IMG/VR virus record: IMGVR_UViG_2645727970_000011
Location: 1 to 35,266 of that record
Length of the DNA: 35,266 nucleotides
Direction: 5' to 3' (one strand)
Source of the DNA: a virus
Lineage: Duplodnaviria; Heunggongvirae; Uroviricota; Caudoviricetes
Shown here: piece by piece, positions 204-31,803 of the stretch
Layout: each line of letters opens with the position of its first letter
Position numbering within the stretch: the stretch's first letter is position 1
Translations under genes and position numbers: made by a program
Notes under the pieces: model-generated
Database searches by the model: none
What the model saw: the letters and a program-made list of their open reading frames with translations, nothing else
What the model was told of the DNA's origin: nothing

Positions 204-1172
204 TTAGTAGGTTATTTTTGTTGCGAATACTTCGCCTTTTACGATGGCTGTTATGATATTTTTAGCAACATCTTCTGATGCGCCAACCTTGATAAGGTCA
301 GCAAGTATTTTGTTATTTACTTCTTTCCGGTGAGCTTTATCCTTTGCTCTGCGCTCTTCTTCGTCCTTGATTCTTTTTTCTTCTGCTATTCTGGCTTGCT
401 CTTTTGCTTCAGCCTCGCGCCGGATTCGTTCAGCCTCCTCCTGTGCTTTTCGGCGTTCTGCTTCAATTGCCGCCTGCTTTTCTCTTTCAGCTCGTTCTGC
501 TGCCTCTTTTGCTTCGCGCTGTGCTCGTTGCTCGGCTTCAATGCGTTCACGCTCTGCACGTTCCGCTGCGGCCTTAGCTTCTGCTTCTCGCCTTGCTGCT
601 GCTTCAATTTCGGCTTTTGCCTTTGCTTCGGCTTCTGCTCTGGCTTTCTCTTCAGCTTCTCTTTTTAAGCGTTCTTCATGCTCTCGCTTTTCCTGCTCCG
701 CTTTGAGTCTTGCCTCTTCTCTTTGGCGGTCAAATTCGCGATCCATCAAAATCGCTATTTCATGGTCAGACTCAATTTGCTTTGCGAGAGCTTCAGCTGC
801 TGCCTTAGCTTCTTCTTCGGCTTTAATCCGCGCCTGTTCTTCCTCATAATCAGTAAGAGGCTGGCGCGCCTTGGCTTTCAGTTCATCAAGGCGATCGCGC
901 ACTGTCTTGCGGTTAGCATCAATTAGCTTTGGAATTTCCTTCAGTTCAGCAACAAGGTCTTTACCAAGACCATCGAGATATGTTTTCGTCTGCGCAACTT
1001 TATACGCCAGAGAAGCGATCTCCTTTCTGCCCTTTGCCGTTGTGATATCAGGCACAAAGGACATAACTTCACGTTCAACCTTTTGAAGGATTTCTTCAAT
1101 CTGGTCGGCAGACTGAAATACAGTCATTGCATTTGCTTTTTCAATAACAACTAAATCTGTTACTTCACTCAT
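204..1172 (-). CDS. Hypothetical highly charged coiled-coil protein (322 aa) of the pL operon
   Basis: Track ORF; central ~200 aa is E/A/K/R-rich repeat (AEEKARAEAEAKAKAEIEAAARREAEAKAAAERAERERIEAEQRAQREAKEAAERAEREKQ) between non-repetitive N- and C-terminal domains; GGAGG-type SD upstream of the ATG at 1172. Confidence 0.75.
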   Translation of the reverse strand: MSEVTDLVVIEKANAMTVFQSADQIEEILQKVEREVMSFVPDITTAKGRKEIASLAYKVAQTKTYLDGLGKDLVAELKEIPKLIDANRKTVRDRLDELKAKARQPLTDYEEEQARIKAEEEAKAAAEALAKQIESDHEIAILMDREFDRQREEARLKAEQEKREHEERLKREAEEKARAEAEAKAKAEIEAAARREAEAKAAAERAERERIEAEQRAQREAKEAAERAEREKQAAIEAERRKAQEEAERIRREAEAKEQARIAEEKRIKDEEERRAKDKAHRKEVNNKILADLIKVGASEDVAKNIITAIVKGEVFATKITY

Positions 1173-1207
1173 ATATCCTCCTTAATTTGTATGCGTCAAA
1201 TCCGCGC

Positions 1208-1519
1208 TCAGGCTGCTGAGGTTTCTTCTTTCAGGCTTTCGATATATTTACGTGGGTCGTCGTAACATTGGCATTCGCTGTACCAATCTACCCAGCGATC
1301 CGTAAGCCCCATCTCTGATAAATCTTCATCAGTAATGCTCTCATCCCACATCTCAAGGCCGTTAGCATTGCAGTAGTCAGGCTTGATATTGTTGTCATAC
1401 TGAAAGGCATCATAATCAGCCAGTGCATCCATCAGGCGAACACCCTCTTCAACACTTGCCACTTCTACAATGAACGGCTTCATAGGAACTTGCGGGATAT
1501 GCCAGACACGTAATTTCAT
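1208..1519 (-). CDS. Hypothetical acidic protein (103 aa)
   Basis: Track ORF starting at ATG 1519 with a GGAGG SD just upstream (complement of 1524..1528); no recognisable family. Confidence 0.6.
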   Translation of the reverse strand: MKLRVWHIPQVPMKPFIVEVASVEEGVRLMDALADYDAFQYDNNIKPDYCNANGLEMWDESITDEDLSEMGLTDRWVDWYSECQCYDDPRKYIESLKEETSAA

Positions 1520-1531
1520 ATTTCCTCCGTC

Positions 1532-1558
1532 AAAAAAATGCCCTCACACTGGAGGGCA
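1532..1558 (-). terminator. Rho-independent terminator on the minus strand
   Basis: Minus strand reads a 7-bp stem (tgccctc / gagggca, plus-strand 1539..1545 and 1552..1558) with 6-nt loop followed by a run of seven U (plus-strand A7 at 1532..1538). Confidence 0.7.
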
Positions 1559-1619
1559 AAGAAGATTTCCAATAATCAGAACAAGTCGGCTCCTGTTTAG
1601 TTACGAGCGACATTGCTCC

Positions 1620-1647
1620 GTGTATTCACTCGTTGGAATGAATACAC
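1620..1647. other. Intergenic hairpin (9-bp stem, 10-nt loop)
   Basis: gtgtattca (1620..1628) pairs with tgaatacac (1639..1647); sits just downstream of the 156-aa gene; no U-tract on either strand. Confidence 0.4.
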
Positions 1648-1661
1648 AGTGCTTATTCGTA

Positions 1662-2132
1662 CTAATAAAACACCCAGTTTTCTGTTTCTTGGTTGTGTCC
1701 AAAGTTATATTCAATATCTGGTGTTGATGTATCAATATTTTTCATCCCATCAACAAGAGTTGATACAACAGCCAAATCTTGTTTTATTCTCATTAAATGG
1801 TATTTCTTCCGACGCAATAAACTTTCAATAGCAAGTTTCTTCGTTGGGAATGCAAAAGATCTTTCTGCATTTTTTGCTACTTTCTTAATTGCATATCTAT
1901 TTCTCCTTTGTTTCCATTCCTGTAACCACTGATTTGGTGCTGGTTTAAAATCAACAATCCAATGCGCAGGAACCAACCATGCATAATGCTCTGTCTGATG
2001 AAAAGCTATATATTGAAGTGCGAATATTTTGATTCCATCTTCTTCAACTGTCGCTTGGAATCTCCAGAAAACAGGCATTCCATTATGTTCAGTTTCTGAT
2101 TCAGGAAAAGGTACGCTCCATGATTTTGTCAT
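1662..2132 (-). CDS. Hypothetical protein (156 aa), AT-rich moron candidate
   Basis: Track ORF; GAGGTG SD before the ATG at 2132; visibly AT-rich compared with neighbouring genes; flanked by minus-strand terminators at 2181..2206 and 1532..1558. Confidence 0.65.
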   Translation of the reverse strand: MTKSWSVPFPESETEHNGMPVFWRFQATVEEDGIKIFALQYIAFHQTEHYAWLVPAHWIVDFKPAPNQWLQEWKQRRNRYAIKKVAKNAERSFAFPTKKLAIESLLRRKKYHLMRIKQDLAVVSTLVDGMKNIDTSTPDIEYNFGHNQETENWVFY

Positions 2133-2180
2133 ATCTCACCTCAAATAATTCAGTGCAGTGTTTATTCTGTTGTTTATGCC

Positions 2181-2206
2181 AAAAATAAAGGCCGACTATG
2201 CGGCCT
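2181..2206 (-). terminator. Rho-independent terminator on the minus strand, overlapping the stop of the upstream gene
   Basis: aggccg (2189..2194) / cggcct (2201..2206) stem with 6-nt loop, followed on the minus strand by uuauuuuu (plus-strand 2181..2188). Confidence 0.6.
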
Positions 2207-2819
2207 CGGAAGGAAGTCCAATCATCTTATTCAAATCTTCTACCCGTAAAGCAGGAAGTGCTGTACTTGCTTTATCTGCTTCTTTTGGTAGCAATTCTTT
2301 GCTTTCAGGCCAAACTTCAATAAGTCGCTTAACTGTTGTGACTGAGTTCAAAGCAGCCCATACATTTGATTCGATATCCTTTTTCTTGGCTTCAAGTTTT
2401 TGTTGCAATGCGCAGATTTCATCAAACCTTTTTGTTATTTCGTGTTCTGCGTCAAACATGCATTTATCTTTTTCTGGGGTGGGGAGCAATATATCTTCAC
2501 CGTTGCCGTCTTTTCCGTATGAATGCCAGCCAACCCTTCTTCCAGATACAGTCAGATAAATCGAAGCAGAACGAACATCGCATGAGTAAAATGAACATCC
2601 CATCTTCTCAAGTTCTTCACTTATAGCTGCTAACTTGGATGATAACCGATCCACTTCCTCAGTTTTCTTTTTACCGCCAAACGCAATAACTCTGGCGTCA
2701 AGTGCAAGCTGGTTCTTTAACTTTGTTACTTCTTCAAGTTCAGTGAAAACCCCAGACTTAATTAAAGCGTTACGAGCGATTTCCTCTTTCATTCTCGTAG
2801 TTAAGCGGATTGATGACAT
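2196..2819 (-). CDS. Hypothetical protein (~207 aa) of the pL operon
   Basis: Track ORF 2196..2834 begins with TTG; an in-frame ATG at 2819 has a GAGG SD 7 nt upstream, giving MSSIRLTTRMKEEIARNA...; no recognised family. Confidence 0.6.
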   Translation of the reverse strand: MSSIRLTTRMKEEIARNALIKSGVFTELEEVTKLKNQLALDARVIAFGGKKKTEEVDRLSSKLAAISEELEKMGCSFYSCDVRSASIYLTVSGRRVGWHSYGKDGNGEDILLPTPEKDKCMFDAEHEITKRFDEICALQQKLEAKKKDIESNVWAALNSVTTVKRLIEVWPESKELLPKEADKASTALPALRVEDLNKMIGLPSEAA

Positions 2820-2955
2820 ATTAATTCCTCTCAAATAAGTGGTTTGCTGCCTAATTTCATTTTCTGGCGACCAACACAGGTCACACCCATTTCACTGCGT
2901 GGCTTGCGGTAGTAAATACGGTTATTTATGTCATTAAAAACCAGCGTGAGCGTGG

Positions 2956-3222
2956 TTATTTTTTCTTTCCAAGAGATGGAAGCCCTCCAGAATAATCTGG
3001 ACCACTTGAACGATGCATTTGATACAATATTGCGTTTTTGTTGGCGTTTAGTGGCTTTGTTGCGAAAGAAATTTTTTCTCGTTTTACATCTCTTATCATC
3101 ATCAACTCACGTTCTGATGCTTTTGGATGATAATCATTGATATGCTTCCATGCTGCCTTGGCGCTGAATTTTCTTCCACATAAAGGGCAATAGCATTTAT
3201 ATGATACTTGTTTGCTAGTCAT
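2956..3222 (-). CDS. Small C2H2-type zinc-finger-like protein (88 aa)
   Basis: Translation contains YKCYCPLCGRKFSAKAAWKHINDYH, i.e. C-x2-C-x12-H-x4-H spacing of a classical C2H2 finger; the ATG at 3222 lies 2 nt after the N stop, so it is co-transcribed from pL. Confidence 0.6.
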   Translation of the reverse strand: MTSKQVSYKCYCPLCGRKFSAKAAWKHINDYHPKASERELMMIRDVKREKISFATKPLNANKNAILYQMHRSSGPDYSGGLPSLGKKK

Positions 3223-3224
3223 TT

Positions 3225-3533
3225 CTATCTCGCCGTAATTGATTTCATTGACCTGTAACCAGCAGCATACAGTGCAACTTCAGGCAAACAAACGCTTCCG
3301 CCATTCGCATCTGTATTTGATTTACTGATGATGCCGAGTGATATTGCTTTTTCAGAAAGACTTAAACGCTTTCTCGGTTCTTCCTGAACAGCTTCCTCAC
3401 TGTCTGTGCCGAAGATCGAATCGATGATGTTGCAGATGGAATCACGCTCGATAGCCAGCTTTCTGCGCCGCTCATGACGGCGAGTTTTGGCATTTCCTGC
3501 AAATGTTGATTTTCCGTACACGATTACCGTCAT
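3225..3533 (-). CDS. N: N-type transcription antiterminator (P22 gene 24-like), 102 aa
   Basis: Internal ATG at 3533 with GAGGA SD 7 nt upstream; arginine-rich motif GNAKTRRHERRRKLAIER matches the P22 N boxB-binding peptide as I recall it; the track ORF extends upstream from a GTG and that N-terminal extension is rejected. Confidence 0.85.
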   Translation of the reverse strand: MTVIVYGKSTFAGNAKTRRHERRRKLAIERDSICNIIDSIFGTDSEEAVQEEPRKRLSLSEKAISLGIISKSNTDANGGSVCLPEVALYAAGYRSMKSITAR

Positions 3534-3652
3534 GATGTTTTCCTCATGTGAAATGGCTTTGGTGGTGATGCGCCAGGTGCTGATCTTCTGGTTGCTGTCG
3601 TTGCAGCTGCAATTCACATCACCGCCAAACCCATCTCGTTTGGTATCTGTTT

Positions 3653-3886: not shown

Positions 3887-4546
3887 TTAACTAAATGTCT
3901 CTTCAGGCCACTGGCTGGCGATAACTTTCCCTACTACGGAACAGCTATCATTGCATGGGATCATTGGATATTGCGGGTTTAGTGGTTGTAGGAACACCTG
4001 ACCGCTATCCCTGATCAGTTTCTTGAAGGTAAACTCGTCACCACCAAGTCTGGCTATGCAGAAATCACCTGGCTCAACAGCCTGCTCAGGGTCAACGAGA
4101 ATTAACATCCCGTCAGGAAAGCTTGGCTTGGATCCTGTTGGTGCGGTCATGGAATTACCTTCAACTTCAAGCCAAAACGCACAATCACTGGCTTTTTTGG
4201 TTGTGCTGACCCATCTCTCCGCATCGCCTTTGGTAAAGGTTCTAAGCTCAGGCGAGAACATCCCGGCCTGAACATGAGAAAAAACAGGGTACTCATATTG
4301 TTTTTTAACGGGGGCAGATGAGTATTCGCCAACAGGTGAAAATGTACCGTCGTGGTTGAATGAGACGTTATCAATACCAAGGTATTTAAACACCACACCA
4401 ATCTCGTCAAGAGATGGATGACGAGATCCGCGCAACCAGTGACCAATTCCACCCTGCGTCATACCAAGCTCTTCAGCTAACTTCTCTTGAGTTATGCCGA
4501 GTTCTTTCATTCTGGATCTAGCCAGTTCATACCATTTCATTTTCAT
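3887..4546 (-). CDS. cI: CI-type prophage repressor (HTH plus LexA-like S24 autopeptidase domain), 219 aa
   Basis: Start taken at the MKMKW ATG (4546) rather than the longer track ORF; N-terminal HTH ([22 protein letters not shown]), Ala-Gly cleavage site (HVQAGMF), GNSM catalytic serine motif and downstream Lys; divergent from cro. Confidence 0.85.
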
Positions 4547-4657
4547 ATCCTTATTATTACGCTCTGTACTAAAACCATCCATGCACAAGATGTATTTTTT
4601 GTTTGCATTCCAAAAGTACATGTCGTATTATTGTTTCATGGTTACTATGGAGGGCAT
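4547..4657. promoter_or_regulatory. oR/pR/pRM divergent control region
   Basis: Rightward pR candidate: TTGCAT (4603..4608), 17-bp spacer, TATTAT (4626..4631), then GGAGGG SD and cro ATG at 4658; AGTAC-containing operator-like motifs at about 4562..4576 and 4611..4625. pRM not resolved. Confidence 0.6.
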
Positions 4658-4873
4658 ATGAGCAACCTACGAAAATATCGAGAGTCACTGAATATCTCTC
4701 AAACAACACTTGCTAAGGCGGTTGGATGCACACAGGGAGCTATCGGACATTGGGAATCTGGTCGTCGCTTCCCAGACCTTAAAACATGCCGTGCTCTTGT
4801 TGCGTGCCTAAACAAGTTAGGCGCAAAAGTCAGTCTTGATGACGTGTTCCCACCGGAACACAAAGCCGCTTAA
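4658..4873 (+). CDS. cro: Cro-like HTH repressor (71 aa)
   Basis: ATG at 4658 after GGAGGG SD; HTH motif QTTLAKAVGCTQGAIGHWESG; the track ORF from 4487 is an upstream open-frame artefact. Confidence 0.8.
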   Translation: MSNLRKYRESLNISQTTLAKAVGCTQGAIGHWESGRRFPDLKTCRALVACLNKLGAKVSLDDVFPPEHKAA

Positions 4874-4883
4874 TAAGCGGATC

Positions 4884-4918
4884 CGCTCTTTATCAATCTG
4901 CACCGCCGACAACGCGGT
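4884..4918 (+). promoter_or_regulatory. nutR site: boxA plus boxB
   Basis: CGCTCTTTA (4884..4892) followed by ACCGCCGACAACGCGGT (4902..4918), the P22-type boxB-right hairpin from memory; immediately downstream of cro. Confidence 0.8.
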
Positions 4919-4926
4919 AACTAATT

Positions 4927-4958
4927 AATCACTCATCGAAAGATGAGTATTAGTGATT
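4927..4958 (+). terminator. tR1-like hairpin between nutR and cII
   Basis: Imperfect hairpin: aatcact / agtgatt outer stem, catc / gatg inner stem, GAAA tetraloop, followed by AUUU; occupies the position of tR1. Confidence 0.35.
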
Positions 4959-4982
4959 ATTTACCTATGGAAATAGTAAGAA

Positions 4983-5279
4983 ATGGAACAAACAAGTTAC
5001 AGCAAACTATCACAGAGCGACGTTGATCGCGCAGAAACAGATTTACTCATCAACCTGTCAACGCTTACCCAGCGCGGTCTGGCAAAGATGATTGGCTGTC
5101 ATGAATCGAAGATAAGCAGAACGGACTGGAGATTTATTGCTTCGGTCTTGTGTGCTTTTGGAATGGCATCAGACATCAGTCCAATTAGCAGGGCTTTTAA
5201 GTATGCGCTTGATGGACTCACCAATAAAAAACGCCCGGCGGCAACCGAGCGTTCTGAACAAATCCAGATGGAATTCTGA
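4983..5279 (+). CDS. cII: CII transcriptional activator (98 aa)
   Basis: C-terminal [20 protein letters not shown] matches the lambda CII C-terminus as I recall it; HTH region [14 protein letters not shown]; located cro-distal as in lambda. Confidence 0.85.
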
Positions 5280-5458: not shown

Positions 5459-6350
5459 CATATCTAATCTAGCCGAAGCCAGAGAGGCCAGAAGGCTACA
5501 ACGACCGCATCAAAGCAGCGGTAAGGGGTATGCCTTGCTGCACCGTAAAATTATGGATGTGCCGTTTTACAAGGACGCAGAAGCAGCGCATCTGTGGGTT
5601 CACTTAATCCTCAAAGCAAAGCATACGCCTGAGTATGTAATGACTGACGCAGGAGAAATTCTGGTAGGCAAAGGGAAGCTACTTGGCGGTAGAAACTCTC
5701 TGGCGTTTGAAACAGGACTCAAACCAGATCGCGTTCAGTACCTGCTTAGAAAGTTCAAAAAACTCGGCATGATTGACTGGGTTTCACACGGTAAATTCTC
5801 AGTTTTCTCGGTAGAGAAATATGACGATTATCAGTCAAATTTTGTACCAGCAGATTACCAGCAAATTACCACCTCAAAGCCAGCAATACCAATGCCTGTA
5901 AGCAATACAGTACCAGCAGATTACCAGCAAATTACCACAGATAAAGAATATAATAATATTATCTCTAATACTGACGTATTAGAGAGTGCCACAGCAGACA
6001 AAAAGTCTGACAAGAAAAAACCTTCCGTCAGCTGTCAGGATGTTGTCGATGCTTACCACGAAATCCTTCCTGAAGCGCCAAGAATCCGCGCACTGAATGA
6101 CAAGCGTAAAAACCAGATCCGAACGTTCTGGCGCAAAGCCGGAGTTATAACCCGCCAGCTTGACGGGCATGGGTTCTCGATGCAGGACTGGAGAAATTAT
6201 TTGAGCTACGTAGGCGAAAATTGCCGATGGATGTTCGAAGAGCGCCCAAACCATCAACGCGGAACTGTCTGGCACAAAAAGGGATTTGATTTCCTGCTTA
6301 ACGATAATACCTACCTGAAAGTTCGTGAGGGTGAACACGATGACCGATAA
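5451..6350 (+). CDS. O: Replication initiator, O-like (P22 gene 18-like), 299 aa
   Basis: Track ORF; position after cII; contains the in-frame repeat [10 protein letters not shown] x2 that corresponds to DNA iterons; followed by an overlapping helicase gene. Confidence 0.7.
5844..5975. repeat. ori-like element inside the O gene: iterons plus AT-rich tract
   Basis: 29-bp repeat gtaccagcagattaccagcaaattaccac at 5844..5872 and 5910..5938 (each holding two ACCAGCARATT sub-units), followed by agataaagaatataataatattatctctaata. Confidence 0.7.
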
Positions 6351-12621: not shown

Positions 12622-12945
12622 ATGAAGATGCCAGAAAAACATGACCTGTTAGCCGCCATTCTCGCGGCAAAGGAACAAGGCATCGGGGCAATCCTTGCGT
12701 TTGCAATGGCGTACCTTCGCGGCAGATATAATGGCGGTGCGTTTACAAAAACAGTAATCGACGCAACGATGTGCGCCATTATCGCCTGGTTCATTCGTGA
12801 CCTTCTCGACTTCGCCGGACTAAGTAGCAATCTCGCTTATATAACGAGCGTGTTCATCGGCTACATCGGTACTGACTCGATTGGTTCGCTTATCAAACGC
12901 TTCGCTGCTAAAAAAGCCGGAGTAGAAGATGGTGGAAATCAATAA
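12622..12945 (+). CDS. S: Holin S, lambda class I, with dual-start motif (107/105 aa)
   Basis: Translation essentially identical to lambda S as I recall it ([39 protein letters not shown]...); Met1-Lys2-Met3 dual start at 12622 and 12628. Confidence 0.95.
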
Positions 12946-13405
12946 TCAACGTAAGGCGTTCCTCGATATGCTGGCGTGGTCAGAGGGAACTGATAACGGA
13001 CGTCAAAAAACCAGAAATCATGGTTATGACGTCATTGTTGGCGGAGAGCTATTCACTGATTACTCCGATCACCCTCGCAAACTTGTCACGCTAAACCCCA
13101 AACTCAAATCAACAGCGGCCGGACGTTACCAGCTTCTTTCCCGTTGGTGGGATGCCTATCGTAAGCAGCTTGGCCTGAAAGACTTCTCTCCGAAAAGCCA
13201 GGACGCTGTTGCACTGCAGCAGATTAAGGAGCGTGGCGCTTTACCGATGATTGATCGCGGTGATATCCGTCAGGCAATCGACCGTTGCAGTAATATCTGG
13301 GCTTCACTGCCGGGCGCTGGTTATGGTCAGTTCGAGCATAAGGCTGACAGCCTGATTGCAAAATTCAAAGAAGCAGGCGGAACGGTCAGAGAGATTGAGG
13401 TATGA
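12929..13405 (+). CDS. R: Endolysin R, lambda-type lytic transglycosylase (158 aa)
   Basis: [49 protein letters not shown]... matches lambda R as I recall it. Confidence 0.95.
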
Positions 13406-13839
13406 GCAGAGTAACCGCGATTATCTCCGCTCTGGTTATCTGCATCATCGTCTGCCTGTCATGGGCTGTTAATCATTACCGCGATAACGCCATCGCCTAC
13501 AAAGAGCAGCGCGACAAAGCCGCATCCACTATCGCTGATATGCAGAAGCGTCAACGTGACGTAGCAGAACTCGACGCCAGATATACAAAGGAGCTTGCTG
13601 ATGCTAACGCGACTATCGAAAGCCTCCGTGCTGATGTTTCTGCTGGTCGTAAGCGCCTGCAAGTCGCCGCCACCTGTGCAAAGTCAACGACCGGAGCCAG
13701 CGGCATGGGCGATGAAGAAAGCCCAGGACTTACAGCAGATGCTGAACTCAATTATTACCGTCTCCGAAGTGGAATCGACAAGATAACCGCGCAGGTTAAC
13801 TACCTGCAGGAATACATCAGGACGCAATGCCTGAAATAA
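13402..13839 (+). CDS. Rz: Rz i-spanin (145 aa)
   Basis: N-terminus [31 protein letters not shown] matches lambda Rz as I recall it; N-terminal transmembrane helix plus coiled-coil periplasmic domain. Confidence 0.9.
13601..13786 (+). CDS. Rz1: Rz1 o-spanin lipoprotein embedded in the +1 frame of Rz (61 aa)
   Basis: ATG at 13601 with AAGGAG SD 7 nt upstream (track ORF starts at an upstream TTG); lipobox LVVSAC; proline-rich mature region. Confidence 0.8.
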
Positions 13840-29261: not shown

Positions 29262-29594
29262 TTAATCATCCATGGATGGATTGAGCTTATCTCGTGTTGA
29301 TGTGGCGGTTTTCCCTACATTCCTAAGCCAAGCTTTCAAATCCTTGATATTGTCATTGATTTCATGAATATCTTCTTTTTTTAATCTGTCAATATTATTT
29401 TCAATAATTTCAATGGATTGCTCAATATCAGATATAGTGAATGATAGTTTGCTCTTCTCATCTGTTATTGAGTTTTTAAGTGCTTCGTTCTCAGTCTTGA
29501 GGTCAGATATCTTTTGCTTTAAAGATGCCAGTTGGCACTGAACCACAATGAGTGCGATAGCTATCACGACAAATGTTGTATACACGCTAACCAC
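29262..29594 (-). CDS. Small membrane-anchored coiled-coil protein: N-terminal transmembrane helix then coiled coil (107-110 aa)
   Basis: Track ORF starts at GTG 29594; a second GTG at 29585 has an AAGGTGG SD 5 nt upstream; hydrophobic N-terminus YTTFVVIAIALIVVQ then heptad-rich segment; AT-rich. Confidence 0.6.
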   Translation of the reverse strand: MVSVYTTFVVIAIALIVVQCQLASLKQKISDLKTENEALKNSITDEKSKLSFTISDIEQSIEIIENNIDRLKKEDIHEINDNIKDLKAWLRNVGKTATSTRDKLNPSMDD

Positions 29595-29605: not shown

Positions 29606-29854
29606 CTACTTGAGGACTAATCCGTTAAGTGCATCAAGGATTTTAGATACGTAACTACCGAAAATGTAGGTGCAAAAAGCAAAAACAACCGTGACGACAG
29701 CACCGATAGCCTTAATGGTTGTTTTCATTGTGGTGATACTAGTTTCAATACTGCTAAGCCTGGTGTCAATTGACTTCACGTCTTTTTGAATGATTTCAAT
29801 GTCACGCTTGATATAGCTGACATCAGACTCTAACTTTGCGACCCTTGATTCCAT
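29606..29854 (-). CDS. Small tail-anchored coiled-coil protein, XhlA-like architecture (82 aa)
   Basis: ATG at 29854 has an AAGGAGG SD 7 nt upstream, whereas the longer track ORF start at 29959 has none; coiled coil (VAKLESDVSYIKRDIEIIQKDVKSIDTRLSSIETSITTMK) followed by C-terminal transmembrane helix AIGAVVTVVFAFCTYIFGSYV. Confidence 0.6.
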   Translation of the reverse strand: MESRVAKLESDVSYIKRDIEIIQKDVKSIDTRLSSIETSITTMKTTIKAIGAVVTVVFAFCTYIFGSYVSKILDALNGLVLK

Positions 29855-29951
29855 GCCATCGCCTCCTTCGCCTCCAGACCTGTTCTTATCCTTTGTGTTC
29901 TCAGGATGGATACGAGATATGTTTTTTTCACTAATTGATGTTTCAATTATA

Positions 29952-30362
29952 TCAAGCATCTTTCACATGACTCACGGAAAAGTAGGCTTGCGCAGAATGC
30001 ACTAGAGTGTTGTCTTTGCTGATGGATACTCGAATTAAGTAATCCCCGTCAGCATCAAGTTTGCATTTATCGAAATGCATAGACATCGATGTTGCCAAGG
30101 TGTTCCTGATCTCATTGTGTCCTTTTGCCTTAATCCACACGCCTTTATCACCGCTTACACTGATTTCTAACTCATTCTCGATTCTATAGAGACAAGCTGA
30201 AACCCAATATGGTGTATCATGAATTAAACCGAGAAAGTGAACCTGAAAATCAAGGTCAGTAGTCACAGGTAACTCATCTGTCTCCATGATTAACATGGGT
30301 GATTTTTCATCATTTTCAGACTTATGGTAAGGAAAAAGGAATGCTATTTTTTCAGTGTTCAT
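29952..30362 (-). CDS. Hypothetical soluble protein (136 aa), first cargo gene downstream of mnt
   Basis: ATG overlaps the mnt stop (ATGA); AT-rich; no recognised family. Confidence 0.6.
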   Translation of the reverse strand: MNTEKIAFLFPYHKSENDEKSPMLIMETDELPVTTDLDFQVHFLGLIHDTPYWVSACLYRIENELEISVSGDKGVWIKAKGHNEIRNTLATSMSMHFDKCKLDADGDYLIRVSISKDNTLVHSAQAYFSVSHVKDA

Positions 30363-30601
30363 TTCCCATCCCTTAAACGTTTAAGTACATTGATGGTTAC
30401 ATCAAGAGCCTCTTGCTCTGACTTTGCCAGTTGCTGACTGCTTGATGGTATAACCTGCTCTTTATGCATTTTTATCCACAACTGGATAGCAGCAATAATC
30501 TCAGCATTGATAGAGCGTCGATTAGTGGCAGCAATATGCGTAAGTTGCTGTTTTATCTCATCTGGCATTCTTACGTTGAATTGCGGATCATTTCTAGCCA
30601 C
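30359..30601 (-). CDS. mnt: Mnt-like ribbon-helix-helix repressor (80 aa)
   Basis: GTG start with AGGAG SD 6 nt upstream; N-terminus MARNDPQFNVRMPDEIKQQL ... NRRSINAEIIAAIQ resembles P22 Mnt as I recall it; divergent from arc. Confidence 0.75.
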   Translation of the reverse strand: MARNDPQFNVRMPDEIKQQLTHIAATNRRSINAEIIAAIQLWIKMHKEQVIPSSSQQLAKSEQEALDVTINVLKRLRDGK

Positions 30602-30694
30602 GTCATTCTCCTTTTATTTATTGACATGCTAGAACGGTAGTAGTACGCTTTCAATAGTAGTACGGTGCTATCATTTAATGAAATGGAGTTGAAT
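30602..30694. promoter_or_regulatory. immI control region: Pant-like promoter with Arc-operator-like sequence and tandem direct repeats
   Basis: TTGACA (30621..30626) followed by ATGCTAGAAC, resembling the P22 Pant -35 and Oarc left half; direct repeat TAGTAGTACG at 30641..30650 and 30658..30667; sequence ATAGTAGTACGGTGCTATCAT at 30654..30674; GGAG SD before arc. Confidence 0.55.
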
Positions 30695-30856: not shown

Positions 30857-30924
30857 AGTTGAAGCCCCAACTGCGGGAACAGTCAGGGCTTCGGTATCAA
30901 CAAATCGGATTAGGAAATATTGAC

Positions 30925-31803
30925 ATGAAAAGTATAGCAAAGGCACAAAACGATTTCACCATCTTCAAATTCGGCGACAGTGAAATCCGCGTCATCAACA
31001 AATGCGGTGAGCCGTGGTTTGTAGCAAAAGATGTTTGTGATGCTTTAACCCTGACTAACTCACGCAAGGCGCTTACTGCACTTGATGACGATGAAAAGGG
31101 AGTAACTTTAAGTTACACCCTTGGTGGTGAGCAGAATCTAAGCATTGTTAGCGAATCAGGTATGTATACATTGGTTCTGCGCTGCCGCGATGCTGTCAAT
31201 AAAGGTTCATTACCGCACAAATTCCGCAAGTGGGTAACAGCAGAAGTTCTGCCTTCAATTCGCAAACATGGCGAGTATGTGAAAGGCAAGAAAACCACTG
31301 TTGAGGAAAGAACACCGCTACGAGATGCAGTAAACATGCTGGTAGGAAAGAAAGGACTTCGCTATGACGATGCATACAATATGGTTCATCAGCGTTTTGG
31401 TATTGACAGCATTGATGAACTTTCAATTGAACAAATCCCGCTGGCCGTAGAGTACATCCACAGGGTAGTGCTTGAAGGTGAATTCATCGGAAAACAAGAG
31501 AAGAAAACCAACGAGCTTTCTGCAAAAGAAGCAAACAGTCTTGTATGGTTATGGGATTATGCCAACCGCTCACAGGCATTATTCCGCGAACTGTATCCGG
31601 CATTAAAACAAATTCAATCGAACTATTCCGGCAGATGCTACGACTATGGTCATGAGTTCTCGTATGTTATCGGAATGGCGAGAGACGTTTTAATCAATCA
31701 CACACGAGATGTTGATATCAATGAGCCAGACGGACCAACGAATCTTTCCGCATGGATGAGACTTAAGAATAAAGAATTACCTCCTTCAGTACATAACTAC
31801 TGA
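30925..31803 (+). CDS. ant: Antirepressor Ant with Bro-N/AntA-type N-terminal domain (~292 aa)
   Basis: ATG at 30925 with AGGA SD (track ORF starts at TTG 30859); N-terminal [30 protein letters not shown] is a Bro-N/AntA-type signature; position after arc as in P22. Confidence 0.75.

Follow-up and report, generated by a model that had tools for sequence, protein, structure and literature searches.

Several phage genes give two proteins from nested in-frame starts, including lambda S, which encodes the holin-antiholin pair S107/S105 from starts 2 codons apart that alter N-terminal charge only, and the genes for the endolysins CTP1L and Lys170, which have a secondary translation product. XhlA of PBSX (Bacillus subtilis) acts with the holin XhlB and the endolysin XlyA and is needed for membrane-vesicle release (PMC5589764); according to a prior report, as cited in that paper, XhlA is also needed for lysis together with XhlB and XlyA. 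The interval between cI and N is a known hotspot that holds rexAB and bstA, which are lysogen-expressed exclusion/abortive-infection genes (PMC8585504); the same source relays that RexB is reported to act as an ion channel. The region downstream of mnt in P22 (the “ant moron”) holds sieA, a superinfection-exclusion gene (PMC2629481). Here, we consider a gene that can be compared with all of these systems. It lies at positions 29606–29959 on the minus strand of a P22-like prophage sequence of 35,266 nucleotides (IMG/VR record IMGVR_UViG_2645727970_000011, positions 1 to 35,266), and this whole stretch of DNA is called the window below. The product of this gene (the target) is predicted from sequence and structural modelling to be a small coiled-coil protein that is anchored in the membrane by its C-terminal end.

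We read the target, at about even confidence, as a membrane protein that occurs in two nested forms, is encoded by the second gene of a mobile repressor-operon cassette and acts in defence. The gene structure and its conservation rest on comparative sequence analysis; we infer that both isoforms are made, that they interact with the product of the first cassette gene, that the cassette is expressed in the lysogen and that it has a defence function. No description of a modular two-gene cassette with nested starts was found in the literature searched, where the accessions and PHROG ids also returned nothing.

Two nested starts in one open reading frame

An earlier sequence-only reading of the window listed an open reading frame (ORF) of 117 codons at 29606–29959 (minus strand). 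This ORF is present and RefSeq annotates its 117-residue product as hypothetical protein WP_032194756.1. Its ATG at 29959 overlaps the TGA stop of the preceding, partner gene in the string ATGCTTGA (29952–29959, minus strand; gap of −8 nt), which forms a translational-coupling junction. The earlier reading set this start aside for lack of a ribosome-binding site in favour of an ATG at 29854, took the first 35 codons to be untranslated and was left with a gap of ~97 nt after the upstream gene. The ribosome-binding site at ATG 29959 is indeed weak: its pairing with the anti-Shine-Dalgarno (anti-SD) sequence is −3.1 kcal/mol compared to −10.4 kcal/mol at the internal start, and the corresponding values for the long-form ATG lie between −2 and −7 kcal/mol in nearly all of 28 distinct close variants. 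On comparative evidence, however, the first 35 codons are coding and under purifying selection. Relatives were collected independently of their N-termini, by tblastn with patterns drawn from the core alone and by exact look-ups of homologs. Among the close relatives, the 26 codons that precede the internal start are free of in-frame stops in all 17 mutually unalignable N-terminal variants, whereas the other five frames carry at least one stop in 9, 17, 8, 10 and 8 of the same 17 variants. Pairwise Nei-Gojobori counts on the extension, with the Gly run left out, give 8/10.8 synonymous versus 2/43.2 non-synonymous changes between loci L033 and L056, which corresponds to a ratio of non-synonymous to synonymous rates (dN/dS) of 0.02. 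Other pairs have values of 0.07 (L044/L059), 0.18 (L048/L051), 0.49 (L010/L105) and 0.74 (L082/L084), all below 1.

The position of the long-form ATG is also constrained. In most close variants it lies −17 to +4 nt from the upstream stop. An abutting upstream ORF occurs in 47/48 distinct family genes, including Vibrio, Shewanella, Pseudomonas and alphaproteobacterial members, with a gap of −23 to +9 nt in 43/47 genes; in the remaining four, the overlaps are larger (−41 to −56 nt), probably because translation starts at a codon other than the first ATG. The open frame, the dN/dS values and the abutting partner stop together indicate that the supposed untranslated gap (29855–29951), whose length had been counted correctly, is an N-terminal extension of the protein. 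On this comparative basis, the long ORF is very probably translated.

The internal ATG (29854–29852) opens a nested in-frame ORF of 82 codons (29606–29854, minus strand), and its product, the short form, comprises the whole structured part of the protein. An AAGGAGG Shine-Dalgarno (SD) sequence is present 7 nt before this ATG (29862–29868, minus strand), as the earlier reading had noted, and has the stronger pairing of the two starts; across most of the 28 close variants, values for the internal start lie between −10 and −14 kcal/mol. All 35 independent family variants have a start-capable codon at this position (ATG in 31, GTG in 2 and TTG in 2), and two further Met-less homologs both have TTG. 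An exact GGAGG occurs 4–9 nt upstream, mostly at 7 nt, in 24 of these 35 variants. Codon choice at single positions is more telling than overall SD strength. Gly codons at codon −4 are GGA in 22/32 cases (69%) versus 23/145 (16%) elsewhere in the same Gly run (odds ratio 11.7, Fisher p = 8e-9). Six independent replacements of Met consist of three GTG and three TTG codons and never of Ile, CTN or other Val codons. With family codon usage of 14.5% GTG among Val codons and 10.5% TTG among Leu codons, the chance that all six are GTG or TTG is 3.5e-6 under equilibrium usage, and by our own calculation ~1e-3 under a stricter null of single-step hydrophobic changes from ATG (Ile x3, Leu x2, Val x1). 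These codon-level signals are not explained by selection on the protein. They suggest that the internal SD sequence and start codon are a genuine conserved initiation signal, and the internal start is probably used. RNA folding of 29800–30010 revealed no structure beyond that of shuffled sequences (z = −0.53), so there is no sign that structure masks or unmasks the internal SD sequence.

The alternative that survives best is that only the 117-residue protein is made, with the Gly run acting as a flexible linker that happens to resemble an SD sequence and Met36 kept as the first hydrophobic core residue. RefSeq annotates the long form only. Met36 is the first core residue of the heptad, where Leu and Val are conservative changes, so the presence of Met, Leu or Val at this position may be structural. 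Gly runs also look SD-like at almost any codon choice: synonymous resampling of overall SD strength gives a mean of −9.7 kcal/mol compared to −11.6 kcal/mol for the real sequences, a modest excess (combined p = 0.0025). This overall test is weak because any Gly run pairs with the anti-SD sequence, and the position-specific codon test was used instead. Both the GGA bias at codon −4 and the restriction of Met replacements to GTG and TTG speak against a single long product, which we consider unlikely. Comparative data favour two in-frame products, with the internal start most likely supplementing and not replacing the annotated one. Reassignment of the start to 29854 was thus right in recognizing a selected and conserved start, but not in discarding the upstream one.

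In having a nested in-frame second start and two products that would share a C-terminal oligomerising part, the target resembles the dual-start phage proteins mentioned above. It has two in-frame starts that each bear signs of selection. Unlike those of lambda S, its starts are 35 codons apart (26–75 in relatives), its long form adds a peptide module and it is not a lysis gene.

Protein architecture, partner genes and probable module exchange

The long form begins with a variable N-terminal extension (residues 1–27; 29879–29959) that is predicted to be disordered, with AlphaFold2 (AF2) confidence scores (pLDDT) of <50 at residues 1–21 and 25–29. A Gly-rich linker, SGGEGGDG (residues 28–35; 29855–29878), follows, and its codons appear to double as the internal ribosome-binding site. 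The remainder consists of a coiled coil with an unbroken heptad (residues 36–83; 29711–29854), a C-terminal transmembrane (TM) helix identified from hydropathy and the AF2 helix (about residues 84–104; 29648–29710), and a conserved 13-residue tail after the TM helix, SKILDALNGLVLK (S105–K117 in the alignment columns; 29609–29647); all of these segments are on the minus strand. AF2 predicts residues 1–34 to be disordered and residues 35–115 to form one helix with pLDDT of ~90. Heptad core positions a and d are hydrophobic in 7/7 and 7/7 cases (M,L,I,I,I,I,M and V,V,I,V,L,I,I, respectively), and the top 19-residue hydropathy window covers residues 82–100 (Kyte-Doolittle 2.08). AF2, heptad and hydropathy analyses therefore agree with the earlier description of the 82-residue core as an uninterrupted coiled coil with one C-terminal TM helix.

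The target matches phrog_6136, a family of unknown function, over its full length (E = 1.1e-37, residues 2–117 on profile positions 8–120 of 120). When 1.84 billion representatives were searched with a profile, 1,629 matched at E <= 1e-3, of which 106 reached E <= 1e-10; many of the 1,629 are long repetitive coiled-coil proteins. Small family members share a plan of variable N-terminal extension, Gly run, core motif, coiled coil and C-terminal TM helix. The most conserved motif in the family is [M/L/V]-E-x-R-V-A-K-L-E-S-D-V-E-Y-I-K-R-D (RVAKLESDVxYIKRD). The Gly run is kept across the whole family, and the tail is nearly invariant among close (enterobacterial) homologs. Very long proteins of 900–3,700 residues (P0113, P0115, P0119, P0126 and others) match the coiled-coil profile in 5–16 stretches each, which indicates that the RVAKLESD-type heptad unit also occurs as a tandem repeat in these giant proteins.

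The target gene is always preceded by a small partner gene, and the partners fall in several unrelated families. The commonest includes the 136-residue protein of the window (phrog_5893), which is encoded by the first gene of the cassette (29952–30362, minus strand). Its structural model (pLDDT 89) is an immunoglobulin (Ig)-like sandwich and it lacks a hydrophobic segment, so that it is predicted to be a soluble Ig-like beta-sandwich. A second family is of Zn-finger type (phrog_4293), for example in Enterobacter phage ENT1, and a third is a 90-residue type; other partners are unclassified. The N-terminal extension of the target co-diverges with the partner gene and its type tracks the partner family. 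Extensions with Ig-like partners carry a short [D/N]xx[V/I]x[L/I]xP-like motif, those with Zn-finger partners are of FPQ[H/Y] type or short, and those with 90-residue partners are 55–75 residues long and Ser/Ala-rich, with a YEDPxL-like motif. It is proposed from this co-variation that the extension is an adaptor that binds the partner.

Nucleotide comparison of loci L101 and L105, that is, of one E. coli copy against one Salmonella copy, reveals three levels of identity. The cI genes and flanks are ~30–50% identical, with no detectable similarity, the partner gene and N-terminal extension are 70–80% identical, and the core from the Gly linker onward is 92–98% identical. Identity jumps from ~75% to ~97% at the Gly linker and internal start (positions ~6090–6120 of each locus). 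This pattern suggests recombination at the Gly linker that swaps partner and adaptor against a constant core, and the identity steps mark the cassette as a mobile unit of its own, within which the linker is a recombination junction.

Genomic context and possible function

The region of the window that contains the target is 99.5% identical to the chromosome of E. coli 266917_2, and the exact region is present in only 1/5,426 complete E. coli genomes. Four minus-strand genes lie head to tail here, in a block that converges on a DNA-transfer gene of 708 codons. The operon is headed by an Mnt-like Arc-family repressor gene (30359–30601, minus strand; Pfam Arc, E = 4.8e-13; “Arc family DNA-binding protein” in RefSeq). 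The stop of this gene overlaps the start of the partner gene in the same way as the partner stop overlaps the target start, and the target sits two genes downstream of the Arc/Mnt-type repressor gene, next to arc and ant. A sigma-70-like promoter match (TTGAAA-17-TAGCAT; 30626–30654, minus strand) closely precedes the mnt-like gene and is a candidate operon promoter on the strength of its consensus match. From 30601 to 29262, the minus strand showed no site that resembles a terminator.

Association with repressor genes recurs in the family. In most relatives examined, the pair lies directly downstream of a repressor gene and in the same orientation; the repressor is cI in most relatives and Mnt here. 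Further upstream neighbours are of repressor type in 9/10 cases tested (S24/HTH, short HTH, or Arc + Mnt). In lambdoid prophages of E. coli and Salmonella, the pair is located between cI (HTH_3 + Peptidase_S24) and N, which is the lambda rexAB slot, and in the window and loci L004 and L014 it lies downstream of mnt in immI. The sequence-only reading had regarded a location beside immI as unexpected, whereas the cassette proves to be typical cargo of repressor-operon moron slots, namely the cI-N interval of lambdoid phages and, in P22-like phages, the region downstream of mnt. The cI-type repressor gene of the window (3887–4621, minus strand) is directly followed by an N-like antiterminator gene (3225–3617, minus strand), which means that the rexAB slot is empty in this phage and that the cassette is in immI instead.

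These positions invite comparison with known exclusion systems. The cassette of the relatives occupies a position identical to that of lambda RexA/RexB and BstA, directly downstream of cI and upstream of N. Like RexAB, it consists of two genes, which are predicted to encode a soluble and a membrane component, and its place in a repressor operon implies lysogen expression, as in the systems described in PMC8585504. Unlike Rex, it has no sequence similarity to RexA/RexB, and the target combines a single C-terminal TM helix with a coiled coil, whereas RexB is the reported ion channel. P22 sieA and the ant moron genes hkcB and hkcC lie between gene 16 and mnt, and the window cassette is in exactly that slot, converging on the DNA-transfer gene; a difference is that the cassette is found at cI-N as well and, in rare cases, among tail genes. 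Epsilon34 genes 44/45, a rex-like pair downstream of the repressor, were considered as a possible copy of the cassette and rejected, since tblastn of the phage collection did not return epsilon34 at E <= 1e-3. Judged by analogy, the probability that the pair has a defence or exclusion function in the lysogen approaches an even chance or falls slightly short of it.

A mechanism can be proposed on this basis. The genes mnt, partner and target would be transcribed together in the lysogen. Ribosomes that end translation of the partner gene would re-initiate at the overlapping ATG at 29959 and produce the long form, whose synthesis would be coupled to that of the partner, and the strong internal SD sequence would independently direct synthesis of the short form from the ATG at 29854. 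Both forms would share the coiled coil, TM helix and tail, and the disordered N-terminal peptide would be present in the long form only. Through the heptad, with beta-branched residues at both core positions, they would form oligomers at the inner membrane, where the lineage-specific peptide of the long form would link the oligomer to the soluble partner (here, a putative cytoplasmic Ig-like beta-sandwich). The pair would then act at the inner membrane against superinfecting phage in the manner of RexA/RexB or P22 SieA. A more ambitious version of this model is doubtful at present. It holds that the cassette is an undescribed modular defence/exclusion system with a constant coiled-coil effector, in which the short form builds the oligomer and the long form docks a swappable partner (Ig-like, Zn-finger, 90-residue type or others) that is exchanged by recombination at the Gly linker and internal ribosome-binding site. 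The accompanying idea that the long form is made only when the upstream gene is translated is similarly tentative.

Several observations weigh against a two-form membrane protein that acts in defence, in addition to the modest excess in SD strength and the possible structural role of Met36 discussed above. Copies at loci L033, L056 and L109 lie among tail genes and not beside a repressor. The fold of the partner is too generic to indicate function, and the proposed adaptor role of the extension is based on co-variation. PADLOC gave no significant defence-model match (CorA-like at E = 0.0023 for the target and none for the partner), NCBIfam and PADLOC scans returned only weak coiled-coil noise, and neither cassette protein matches a PHROG “superinfection exclusion” family.

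A different lysogen-expressed role would also fit a cassette of two translationally coupled genes that includes one for a small membrane protein and moves as a discrete module. The pair could be an addiction or toxin-antitoxin-like module, in which a soluble protein is the antidote to a membrane toxin, or it could be a conversion factor with effects on envelope physiology or virulence, and one relative does lie beside a YafO toxin gene. Pfam, NCBIfam and PADLOC, however, reveal no homology to known toxin-antitoxin families, and the position of the cassette matches that of known exclusion/abortive-infection cargo (PMC8585504, PMC2629481). We regard such roles as quite unlikely.

The sequence-only reading likened the target to XhlA-type lysis-associated proteins. 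The likeness of shape is real: PBSX XhlA and the target are both small and phage-encoded, and in both an N-terminal coiled coil is combined with one TM helix at the C-terminal end, with weak profile similarity over both parts. The best Pfam match of the target is XhlA (PF10779; 24.8 bits, E = 2.4e-5, 58/67 profile positions), which falls below the gathering cutoff of 34.7 bits, and its FlaC_arch score is equal. In a control, the reversed core sequence scores 17.0 of 25.4 bits on XhlA and 18.7 on FlaC_arch, so that about two thirds of the XhlA signal is coiled-coil composition. The Pfam XhlA cutoff is reached by 0/56 close homologs (best E 1.9e-5) and 0/63 remote small homologs (best E 2.4e-6). 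The target also has parts that PBSX XhlA lacks and that fall outside the match, namely the variable N-terminal extension, the Gly linker and the conserved tail of 13 residues, and it lies outside a lysis cassette without an adjoining holin or endolysin partner; its neighbours are the Ig-like partner, the Mnt-like repressor and an hkcB-like gene. Membership of the XhlA family is thus not established on sequence grounds, and “XhlA-like” describes the shape of the protein only. In the literature searched, XhlA appeared only in Gram-positive lysis contexts or as an automatic annotation.

It could still be argued that the target is a true XhlA-type lysis accessory that acts with the holin in lytic growth, given its top Pfam match, weak matches to PHROG “hemolysin” families, the shared architecture and the name “hemolysin XhlA” that NCBI gives to many homologs. 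Such a role is very improbable. All 119 members scanned fall below the Pfam cutoff, the window has its own holin, endolysin and Rz (spanin) cassette at 12622–13839, 16 kb from the target, and the window copy and most relatives examined are in a repressor operon with a non-holin partner. The resemblance in architecture to which the earlier reading pointed therefore stands, but neither family membership nor a lysis role does. A similarly weak alternative, that only the 82-residue protein is made and a mis-called start has turned an untranslated spacer into 35 apparent codons, can draw on the contrast between the strong conserved internal signal and the weak SD sequence of the first ATG, on tblastn matches to relatives that begin exactly at residue 36 and on structure that starts at residue 35, but it is highly unlikely given an upstream frame that is open in 17/17 variants, compared to stops in ~60% of variants in other frames, purifying selection and partner-specific motifs in the extension and the consistent abutment of the long-form ATG on the partner stop.

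Neighbouring genes and significance

The gene downstream of the target is hkcB-like (29262–29594, minus strand; phrog_5962, E = 3e-57). It begins 11 nt after the target and probably shares its operon, although it is outside the conserved cassette, because downstream genes vary among the other loci. Its DNA is 94–95% identical to epsilon34 gene 14, CUS-3 hkcB and SEN22, and this homology block stops within a few bases of the start of the gene (~29603) at a mosaic junction with the cassette. In a megablast of the region against the phage collection, matches were confined to the hkcB-like and mnt/arc flanks, and the target itself had no DNA homolog there. In the 110-residue hkcB-like protein, an N-terminal TM helix (residues 2–20 score Kyte-Doolittle 2.3) and a long coiled coil give an i-spanin-like shape, and the protein has weak Rz-like PHROG matches (E ~0.002).

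The repressor at the head of the operon matches the Pfam Arc domain only, whereas its counterpart at L014 (4390–4641) also matches the Repressor_Mnt C-terminal domain, so the window repressor may be a divergent Mnt. The Ant-like gene nearby (30859–31803, plus strand) poses another start-codon question in the same region: the mechanical ORF starts at TTG and has 314 codons, and RefSeq gives 296 residues for the “P22AR C-terminal domain-containing protein” of the identical E. coli prophage. A member of a “superinfection exclusion” PHROG, phrog_1510, lies elsewhere in the window at 1208–1519. Among the relatives, the L014 cassette is flanked by small ORFs at 4668–5021 and 5873–6175 (117 and 100 residues) with signal-peptide-like N-termini, which points to extra envelope-directed cargo in the same mnt operon. 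The L109 copy (685–3477; Klebsiella-group prophage contigs) has a partner of the 90-residue type and a 75-residue extension, lies among genes for the tape measure and tube of the tail, and adjoins a YafO-toxin-family gene and a second ORF of 158 residues.

Names of the “hemolysin XhlA” kind in the target family rest on sub-threshold, largely compositional similarity and suggest the wrong biology, namely lysis or haemolysis instead of repressor-operon cargo. The cassette occurs in the rexAB/bstA slot, which is the best-known hotspot for defence genes in lambdoid phages, as well as in the slot of sieA in P22, and this makes it a candidate new exclusion/abortive-infection system. Its Gly linker appears to serve two purposes, one as a linker within the protein and the other as a ribosome-binding site for the internal start, and coincides with the junction at which modules recombine. 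If both products are made, the target would be a clear bacterial example of nested in-frame isoforms with built-in control of stoichiometry.

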